Shown here piece after piece: positions 28,164-29,307 of a stretch of DNA of 38,540 nt; the stretch's first letter is position 1; every line of letters begins with the position of its first letter. The translations under genes were made by a program, and so were the position numbers. The stretch lies in IMG/VR virus record IMGVR_UViG_2541047933_000012, one strand, 5' to 3'. The notes beneath the pieces are model-generated. The model saw only the letters and a list, made by a program, of their open reading frames with translations, did not search any database and had not been told where the DNA came from. This DNA is from a virus (Duplodnaviria; Heunggongvirae; Uroviricota; Caudoviricetes).

Positions 28164-28813
28164 GCCGCCATCTCCCTGAGCAGTTTTTCCGCCTGCTGGC
28201 GAACCTGCGCCAGAAACGCCTCACCACATGCCTCAAGTTCATCGCGCCCGATGTAGCTGATTGCCGGTCCCTTCCAGGTCTTGTCAAAAACAGCAATAGC
28301 ACCAGCGAAGAAAGCTCCTGTCGGCACCTGCTTCTCGTCTTTCGGGATAAACCAGACAGGCAGTTCAAAACCAATACGCCCGCGAATAAAAGCAATATGA
28401 TCTGCATCTTCCGGCCACCACACTTCGCTGGTGGCAGCTTTGATCAGGAAAACATAGCGCCCGCCTTTATCACGCATGGCACTGGCATGCTTCATGATGT
28501 AACGCATGCCGGTGATGTATTGCCCCTCATGCTGACTGGCGCGGCTGTATGGGGGATTACCAAAGGCAGCACCTTTAAGCTCCGCAAGACGTTCTGACCA
28601 GTCATGCGCCAGCGCATTGTCTTCCGCCGTGTAATACGCGGCACATTTGGCGTTACCACCGTCGGTGAACAGATCCAGAACAAACGGGCCAAACAGGGTG
28701 TTAATTCCCCAGAAAATGTTGTCCGGCGTGCGCCACTGATCGCCCACTTCCTTCAGTTCATGGGCTGGTTTGTTCCGCAGCTCCACCAGCGCCTGGCAAT
28801 ATTTATTACTCAT
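28160..28813 (-). CDS. Phage DNA N6-adenine methyltransferase (Dam-like)
   Basis: NPPY-class catalytic motif (FGNPPYSR); start taken at the Met at 28813, overlapping the upstream stop. Confidence 0.7.
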   Translation of the reverse strand: MSNKYCQALVELRNKPAHELKEVGDQWRTPDNIFWGINTLFGPFVLDLFTDGGNAKCAAYYTAEDNALAHDWSERLAELKGAAFGNPPYSRASQHEGQYITGMRYIMKHASAMRDKGGRYVFLIKAATSEVWWPEDADHIAFIRGRIGFELPVWFIPKDEKQVPTGAFFAGAIAVFDKTWKGPAISYIGRDELEACGEAFLAQVRQQAEKLLREMAA

Positions 28814-29307
28814 TAAGCCCCCACGTAATTCCCTGACAGATACCACTCTTCACCCGATGCAGCGCGCTTGCTGCTTTTCCGTAAGCACCGCTCACGACGC
28901 GCCAGAAAATTGTTTCGTTCTGGCTGGGAGTGGCTTTCACGGAATGCCGCCATCCACACGGTTGCAGCACGACGGTATAAACCCCTGGACTCCAGTTCTT
29001 CAGCCTGGCGGGTCAGGCACAAAATCACCCGTGGATCGTTAGTGCCGACATAGAAATTGCGCACAGGTCTGGTTTCTCGAACTGGTTGTGGTTCCGGTTC
29101 CTGCGCTCTCTCAGTCAGGCGCGGGAAATGTCTGCGTGTATCTCCTTCACAACGGTGAGCCACACGCCCACTCTGACGTAACTTGCTTGCTGACTGCAGA
29201 ACGCGCTGTCGTGAGTAACCTGCAAAAGCATCCGCAATGTCACCGGAAGTACACCCCGGATGGGCTTCAATGAATTTCTGAACGTCATTTAACAGACTCA
29301 TGATCAC
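28813..29307 (-). CDS. PerC/Pch-like transcriptional regulator
   Basis: C-terminal LESRGLYRRAATVWMAAF...ARRERCL resembles the PerC family core as recalled. Confidence 0.35.
   Translation of the reverse strand: MIMSLLNDVQKFIEAHPGCTSGDIADAFAGYSRQRVLQSASKLRQSGRVAHRCEGDTRRHFPRLTERAQEPEPQPVRETRPVRNFYVGTNDPRVILCLTRQAEELESRGLYRRAATVWMAAFRESHSQPERNNFLARRERCLRKSSKRAASGEEWYLSGNYVGA

Follow-up and report, generated by a model that had tools for sequence, protein, structure and literature searches.

The window, that is, the whole stretch of 38,540 nucleotides from a virus of the Caudoviricetes (IMG/VR record IMGVR_UViG_2541047933_000012), contains an intact open reading frame (ORF) exactly at positions 28813..29307 of the minus strand, which encodes 164 aa when read from the GTG at 29307. 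The ORF lies in the replication/early region, as the first-pass annotation had reported, between a gene for an O-like replication initiator and dam (Table 1). In E. coli ATCC 11775, a prophage encodes a protein 100% identical to its product (WP_001332382.1), annotated as yfdN, "PerC family transcriptional regulator". The window as a whole evidently derives from this prophage, and the suggestion of a prophage-borne copy was also borne out. The gene showed 96% nucleotide identity with yfdN of K-12, which belongs to the cryptic prophage CPS-53/KpLE1, and the protein was 97% and 69% identical to Orf40 of the Shigella phage SfV and Sb43 of the Salmonella phage ST64B, respectively.

Table 1 Features of the yfdN locus, with positions counted along the whole window.
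Feature	Position	Strand	Details
yfdN-like CDS	28813..29301	-	162 aa from ATG at 29301; stop TAA at 28815-28813
N-terminal winged helix-turn-helix	29122..29301	-	aa 1-60; H-H-H-beta-beta
Pro/Glu-rich linker	29035..29121	-	~aa 61-89; variable length; pLDDT and alignments
PerC/ANR-like three-helix core	28855..29034	-	aa 90-149; conserved Cys139
Short C-terminal tail	28816..28854	-	family motif W-Y-L-x-G-x-Y-x-G; alignments
O-like replication initiator gene, upstream	29304..30245	-	Pfam HTH_36 N-domain; PHROG 391, E 6e-135
Iteron-like array	29837..29952	.	~6 copies, 15-bp spacing, unit ~CAGATTTTGACGGGT; repeat families D1 and D2
Phage Dam N6-adenine methyltransferase gene, downstream	28160..28813	-	Pfam Dam, E 6e-45; TIGR01712, 253.6 bits; PGAP

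The GTG at 29307 was used as the start codon by both PGAP and the first-pass annotation. In the sequence surrounding the start (...AGGGGGTGATCATGAGT...), a Shine-Dalgarno sequence, AGGGGG, was found immediately 5' of the ATG at 29301, from which a 162-aa protein beginning with MSLLNDV is read. In the alignments, all relatives, down to 24% identity, began with MS(L/I). Because the N-terminus of the shorter form is conserved in all relatives, and in view of the AGGGGG just upstream, the ATG at 29301 is the likelier start. The stop codon of the O-like gene (TGA, 29306-29304) is located 2 nt ahead of this ATG, and the stop codon of yfdN overlaps the ATG of dam (TAATG). This tight packing on both sides suggests that translation is probably coupled from the O-like gene through yfdN to dam.

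PHROG 1324 ("transcriptional activator") matched YfdN over its full length (aa 2-163, E 6.1e-79). The PHROG profile and the K-12 match, the two-domain build described below and the position between O-like and methyltransferase genes, which is that found in SfV, ST64B and divergent metagenomic relatives, place the protein in the YfdN family. The gene is yfdN, which is conserved as a delayed-early gene among temperate Enterobacteriaceae phages of the SfV/ST64B/mEp460 type, and for its identity and architecture taken together we see hardly any room for error. The gene is not new, and its PerC-type resemblance re-derives the annotation already present in RefSeq and PHROGs.

We detected yfdN in 2674 of the 5426 complete E. 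coli genomes; further carriers are mEp460, SfII, SfIV and many Stx2c phages. When 1.84 billion cluster representatives were searched exhaustively with a profile, only 145 matches were obtained at E <= 0.001, about 30 of which, counted as 50%-identity cluster representatives, were two-domain proteins of 140-165 aa with identities down to 24%. The dN/dS values of the window gene were 0.03 against the K-12 gene, 0.11 against that of SfV and 0.17 against the ST64B copy. YfdN thus represents a small protein family of Enterobacteriaceae phages under purifying selection, and a conserved two-domain protein of this kind is carried by about half of the complete E. coli genomes. The mentions of yfdN retrieved by our literature search were incidental or made at the level of the region, and no function was reported in them. 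Among these were a multi-gene filamentation fragment, a DFI-seq study and a predicted interactome cluster.

Next to the gene, the minus strand carries, in order, a cro-like gene (ymfT), a cII-like gene (ymfL), DUF4222, the O-like gene, yfdN and dam, followed by a protein consisting only of a LexA DNA-binding domain, RusA, KilA-N, DUF968 and Q. This early operon is divergent from the gene for a cI-like repressor with an S24 peptidase domain, and yfdN lies about 2 kb inside it. The order of O-like gene, yfdN, methyltransferase, LexA DNA-binding domain and RusA through DUF968 and Q was kept in relatives of 32% and 24% identity, in which the genes overlapped by 4 bp, and it was kept even with a methyltransferase of another family. 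One relative of 26% identity was located after RecT instead. PADLOC gave no meaningful match linking the region to a defence system, and a link of yfdN to defence was accordingly dropped.

The upstream initiator was matched by a PHROG labelled "replication initiation O-like" (PHROG 391), and its C-domain (residues 131-277) was 35% identical to lambda O (E 4e-18). In lambda, the C-domain of O contacts P, and ori is located within the O gene. The iteron-like array of the window is also situated inside the O-like gene and, by analogy with lambda, is a probable phage origin of replication.

The structure of YfdN was modelled with AF2 using a 12-sequence alignment (mean pLDDT 77.5). The model showed two confidently predicted parts, a winged helix (aa 1-60) and a bundle of three helices (aa 90-149; helices 90-105, 109-122 and 126-149), which are separated by a disordered linker, with pLDDT below 50 at aa 63-84, where the relatives vary in length and are poorly conserved. 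The N-terminal domain showed the H-H-H-beta-beta fold of MarR/ArsR/BlaI-like domains, and its third helix and wing were basic. No winged-helix family in Pfam matched the window protein at E <= 0.1. For the N-domain of relatives, Pfam matches remained below threshold (HTH_24, 20.6 bits with a cut-off of 21.9; MarR_2, 25 bits with a cut-off of 27; and Penicillinase_R), and a PHROG MarR match was obtained at E 6.5e-5. A search of PDB sequences with YfdN found nothing at E <= 10, and a search with the PerC/YfdN profile gave only a marginal MarR match; no solved structural relative was thus found by the PDB sequence and profile searches. The three-helix core is TPR-like, a match of a generic kind. 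In the tail, WYLSGNYVGA, residues L155, G157, Y159 and G161 were conserved among relatives, and this segment has no counterpart in PerC or the Pch proteins.

The C-terminal half, in which the first-pass annotation had noted a resemblance to PerC-family activators, was compared with reference proteins taken from their own genomes, namely PerC from pMAR2 of EPEC E2348/69, and PchA, PchD and PchE from O157:H7 Sakai. The Pfam PerC model (PF06069) matched aa 100-151 of the 164-aa form with 36.1 bits (E 7.8e-9), above the curated gathering score of 22.6 bits. In BLASTP, the window protein was 40% identical to PchE over 52 aa (E 5e-10), 41% identical to PchA over 44 aa (E 1e-7) and 37% identical to EPEC PerC over 46 aa (E 1e-6), all within residues ~94-145. 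A joint alignment with PerC, PchA, PchD and PchE contained 11 invariant columns (A100, L103, E104, G107, R110, R111, A112, W116, R129, R136 and C139, numbered in the 162-aa form), and the PerC core motif A..LE..G.[YW]RRA...W / R...R..C was present in YfdN. The similarity is well beyond chance, and the proposed PerC-type core therefore stands.

However, YfdN covered only positions 5-56 of the 90 in the PerC model, whereas PerC, PchA, PchD and PchE covered the whole model (1-89/90) with 124-153 bits. Model positions ~57-90, which correspond to the conserved PerC/Pch tail, are absent from YfdN, so that it has no full-length PerC domain. Moreover, YfdN does not share the small single-domain build (~89-104 aa) of these proteins, since it has 162 aa and an extra winged helix. 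The only other match on the 47 residues of the PerC core was to the NCBIfam model of the ANR family (AraC negative regulators; NF033650), which aligned over its positions 5-51 of 54 with aa 98-144 of YfdN (23.6 bits, E 3.5e-5). This score does not reach the curated cut-off of 32 bits, but PerC, PchA, PchD and PchE scored even lower on the same model, at 13.6-18.2 bits. ANR proteins have three helices and a highly conserved cysteine (PMC4038620). Both were found in YfdN, whose Cys139 is invariant in the PerC/Pch alignment and present in at least 90% of the alignment of divergent relatives; in size, YfdN (162 aa, ~18 kDa) exceeds the ANR limit of 10 kDa. The half-model PerC match, together with an ANR score higher than those of PerC and the Pch proteins, indicates that the core of YfdN is best described as a common PerC/ANR three-helix module, and not as a complete PerC domain. 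The core forms a link between PerC/Pch and ANR, two families with a biochemical mechanism that is understood only in part.

With regard to expression, no promoter-like site was found upstream of yfdN on its own strand. The GC content of yfdN was 54%, similar to that of its neighbours, as compared with 35% for perC; a value of 54% is typical of core phage genes and not of an AT-rich accessory gene. The location inside the early operon, the coupling to its neighbours, the lack of a promoter-like site upstream and the GC content suggest that yfdN is silent while the repressor is active. From its position, yfdN would be a delayed-early gene expressed on induction, and its expression in repressed lysogens is unlikely. 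An approximately 12-fold rise of yfdN alongside phage tail genes, which was reported for CFT073 under nitrosative stress (PMC5320621), is consistent with induction-timed expression.

Our best guess is that YfdN acts as a DNA-tethered modulator of nucleoid proteins or of transcription in lytic growth. Under this proposal, yfdN would be transcribed from the early rightward promoter once the repressor is inactivated, and its translation would be coupled to that of the O-like gene on one side and Dam on the other. The winged helix, a basic domain absent from the small proteins PerC, Pch and ANR, would put YfdN on DNA and thereby target it. The PerC/ANR core may then contact other proteins, either to remodel repressive nucleoprotein complexes or to sequester a regulator, as Pch does with H-NS/StpA at LEE1 and Aar with AggR and H-NS. 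As a likely result, transcription of the phage or the host would be adjusted in the course of lytic development, and LEE-type virulence activation in lysogens would not be expected. We put this mechanism forward tentatively, as somewhat less probable than not. The half-model PerC match, the ANR match below its cut-off and the generic three-helix match count against it, and a role in transcription alone would not account for the strictly conserved place beside the replication initiator. For the explanation as a whole, in which identity, build, expression and mechanism are taken together, the chances appear evenly balanced, a compromise among parts of different strength.

The sign of the effect of YfdN cannot be read from its relatives. 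Pch activates only where H-NS, StpA, Hha and YdgT silence, and it reduces the binding of H-NS in vitro (PMC4764244). PchD and PchE, even at full length, barely activate ler as compared with the activators PerC and PchABC (PMC5931665). On the other hand, a PerC-like protein of a phage-inducible chromosomal island (PICI), EcCIMP1_025, represses LEE1 and has been suggested to resemble ANR proteins (PMC11773190), and PchE represses csgD (PMC6265319). Since the members are activators, near-neutral proteins or repressors, the direction of the YfdN effect is not predictable, and the family name is no guide to virulence activation.

In a more specific and more doubtful form of the proposal, the YfdN family would constitute distinct phage early proteins in which a winged helix tethers the PerC/ANR module as a phage-timed, DNA-targeted counter-silencer. 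After induction, the module might displace or re-organise H-NS-type complexes at phage or host sites, or capture a regulator, and the fixed place of the gene between the initiator gene and dam might tie this activity to the firing of the origin and to methylation. If this is the case, the PerC/ANR core would gain a general, non-virulence function in phage biology.

ANR proteins bind AraC-type activators and H-NS, as does Aar, which targets AggR and H-NS. An alternative to the DNA-tethered modulator is accordingly an ANR-like anti-activator, the core of which would bind and inactivate an AraC-type factor, in the manner of Aar and AggR, or H-NS, with net repression as the result. The ANR score of YfdN, which is higher than those of PerC and the Pch proteins, the three helices with a conserved cysteine and the repression of LEE1 and csgD by the PICI protein and PchE are in line with this idea, for which the ANR study itself leaves the mechanism open (PMC4038620). 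We nevertheless consider it unlikely, since the score lies under the cut-off, ANR proteins are single-domain proteins of less than 10 kDa, none of which has a winged helix, and the early region of the window showed no gene of the AraC type.

The first-pass annotation had further suggested that a prophage-borne PerC-like activator could rewire host transcription in lysogens. A PerC/Pch-type activator of this kind would be expressed from the prophage and switch on virulence or other host regulons such as LEE1/ler. The PerC core motif agrees with such an activator, and Uhlich et al. called yfdN the "K12 unique PerC homologue" and deleted it to obtain a clean ler-lacZ reporter strain (PMC5931665). 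In addition, forced overexpression of yfdN from the ASKA collection caused a glycogen-deficient phenotype, a perturbation of host physiology (PMC2853380). Against this, YfdN lacks the C-terminal half of PerC and Pch, its additional winged helix has no equivalent in them, and family members are not uniformly activators, as the poor activation of ler by PchD and PchE illustrates. The gene is also part of a repressed early operon, lacks a detectable promoter of its own, differs from perC in GC content and is common among commensal, K-12 and UPEC strains. Because the label rests on half a domain, and both the build and the operon position differ, YfdN should not be read as a virulence switch of lysogens. 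Of the overall reading, then, the PerC-type core was retained, whereas a Pch-like switch acting in lysogens, and with it the rewiring of their transcription, appears decidedly improbable from the position, coupling and composition of the gene.

The location of yfdN raised another explanation, namely that YfdN is a replication accessory in the slot of lambda P, either as an adaptor from the O-like protein to host DnaB/DnaC or as a modulator of origin firing. Homology between the C-domains of the O-like protein and lambda O, and the lack of a recognisable loader gene, prompted us to pursue this P-replacement idea; the non-structural genes of the window that were tested included no homologue of P, DnaC or DnaB. 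Directly 3' of the O-like gene and translationally coupled to it, yfdN keeps this adjacency down to 24% identity, and related O-like genes, which overlap their neighbour in a like manner, are followed by P in Edno5 and SEN34, as in lambda, or by DnaC and a helicase in phiP27. However, Klebsiella phage P7641 encodes a full-length O-like protein of 72% identity, with a methyltransferase gene directly after it, and no YfdN/PerC-like ORF turned up (best E 0.35) when all six frames of the complete 38.8-kb genome were searched with the profile. Initiators of this O-like type can evidently function in the absence of both YfdN and a loader encoded by the phage, which weakened the candidacy of YfdN as a replacement for P. 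Searches of Pfam, PHROGs, NCBIfam, PDB sequences and folds detected no similarity of YfdN to loaders of the lambda P/DnaC type, and its combination of a winged helix and a TPR-like hairpin resembles no known helicase loader. Furthermore, the core is common to regulators with no link to replication, and the divergent homologue after RecT does not follow an O-like gene. We therefore regard a role in replication as very unlikely.

A Ren-like exclusion or anti-exclusion function, with an N-domain related to lambda Ren, appears highly improbable: PHROG 142 ("Ren-like exclusion protein"; E 0.0097, aa 3-69), an hhalign match of the family profile to the Ren-like protein of Sakai Sp8 (E 2.2e-4, 62 columns) and the comparable position of yfdN and lambda ren just downstream of replication genes speak for it, but the probability of the hhalign match was only 45%, ECs_1076 of Sakai Sp4 ("phage exclusion protein") gave no hhalign signal (probability 0.5%), the resemblance may reflect a shared generic winged helix only, and Ren has no PerC core, so that a homology of the N-domain to Ren was rejected as weak and inconsistent between the two Sakai proteins.

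Among known systems, lambda P and lambda Ren are positional analogues. They occupy the slot directly downstream of the O-type initiator in lambdoid early operons, as does yfdN; nevertheless, lambda P has no detectable sequence similarity to YfdN and that of Ren is weak. The ANR proteins, Aar of EAEC and its relatives, share three predicted helices and a conserved cysteine with YfdN, but they are single-domain proteins of 39-80 aa, whereas YfdN has two domains and stays under the ANR cut-off of 32 bits.

PchD and PchE, encoded on SpLE1 and Sp7 of EHEC, belong to the PerC family and activate ler little or not at all; of the pairwise comparisons with the YfdN core, that with PchE gave the best match (40% identity, E 5e-10). 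The phenotypes of PchE are the repression of csgD and increased flagellar expression (PMC6265319, PMC7369912). In a satellite-like element, pchE has genes for primase and SSB as its neighbours. Unlike YfdN, both proteins have 89-90 aa, match the full PerC model with 124-153 bits and have no N-terminal winged helix. The possibility that YfdN is PchD or PchE itself was rejected, as the cloning primers and the Sakai loci correspond to single-domain proteins of 89-90 aa.

PerC, from the EPEC pEAF plasmid, and PchA/B/C, from lambdoid prophages of EHEC, have in common with YfdN a core of ~45-50 aa (37-41% identity), which is predicted to form helices 1-3, and all of them are carried on horizontally transferred elements. 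In PerC and the Pch proteins (89-104 aa, single-domain), the core is N-terminal and followed by a conserved tail of ~40 aa that is missing from YfdN, which has ~95 extra N-terminal residues and its own tail of 13 aa. PerC and the Pch proteins have no winged helix and match the whole Pfam model with 143-149 bits, as compared with 36 bits for YfdN. Furthermore, perC belongs to the perABC operon and pchA lies outside an early operon, whereas yfdN is inside one. The activation of LEE1 by Pch through relief of H-NS silencing has been shown experimentally (PMC4764244). The closest counterparts of the window gene are yfdN of K-12, Orf40 of SfV and Sb43 of ST64B. At the K-12 locus, an intact yfdN has truncated pseudogenes of the O-like gene and dam on either side; otherwise, there is no material difference, with the family, the two-domain build and the O-like/dam position all being those of the window gene.

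The start of yfdN, the gene with a PerC-like core that lies between the O-like replication initiator gene and dam, was placed by RefSeq/PGAP at a GTG at 29307, giving a protein of 164 aa and an overlap with the stop codon of the O-like gene. We favour the ATG at 29301 (162 aa) as the predicted start, because the MSL... N-terminus is conserved in all relatives and the spacing of the AGGGGG Shine-Dalgarno sequence fits. In the CPS-53 cryptic prophage of E. coli K-12, both neighbours of yfdN are truncated pseudogenes, the O-like one lacking its N-terminus and dam its C-terminus, and yfdN itself is intact. 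The dN/dS between the K-12 gene and the window copy was 0.03. The intact state of yfdN amid these pseudogenes could be due to chance or to retention.

In its C-terminal domain, the O-like initiator showed 35% identity to the corresponding domain of lambda O (E 4e-18). The iteron-like array within its gene, with a repeat unit of approximately CAGATTTTGACGGGT and nested inverted repeats, codes for the protein's repetitive Ser/Lys/Asp linker. This array probably serves as the replication origin of the phage, by analogy with lambda, in which the origin is likewise located within the initiator gene. Across the early region 24871-31700, no P, DnaC or DnaB-type gene was recognisable among the non-structural genes tested.

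Features of the window and of the compared loci.
Feature	Location	Strand	Remark
LexA-type protein, 108 aa	27837-28163	-	DNA-binding domain only; Pfam LexA_DNA_bind E 2.9e-19
Iteron-like array	29837-29952		inside O-like gene (29304..30245, -); ~6 repeats, 15-bp spacing
DUF4222 gene	30235-30414		annotated
112-aa ORF	30255-30593	-	between cII-like and DUF4222 genes; PHROG 1170 full length, E 1e-69
YdaS/Cro-like gene, ymfT-like	31185-31385	-	divergent from cI-like repressor
cI-like repressor, ymfK-like	31476-32150	+	LexA-family (S24 peptidase)
yfdN region, K-12 CPS-53	L002 6297-7761
PchE, Sakai Sp7	L005 21773-22045

The immunity region, in which a YmfL/CII-like gene comes after the YdaS/Cro-like gene, is an e14/SfV-type switch. 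The 112-aa ORF has no annotation in the RefSeq record and overlaps the DUF4222 gene in a different frame. Either the annotation missed a gene here, or PHROG 1170 was built from similar over-calls. The S24 peptidase domain was absent from the 108-aa LexA-type protein, whose gene keeps its place downstream of dam in divergent relatives. During induction, this protein could mimic LexA in a form that cannot be cleaved.

The Klebsiella phage P7641 presents the same situation as the window, with an initiator of the O-like type and no recognisable P, DnaC or DnaB-type gene, but it lacks yfdN. In the satellite-like element Sp7 of E. coli O157:H7 Sakai, the gene for PchE, a short PerC-family protein, adjoins primase/SSB replication genes, and other short PerC-like genes adjoin the primase/SSB genes of phage-inducible chromosomal islands (PMC11773190). 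These neighbourhoods resemble that of yfdN, which adjoins the O-like gene. Genes of the PerC type are therefore recurrent beside replication modules, namely primase/SSB genes in satellite-like elements and the O-like gene in the case of yfdN.
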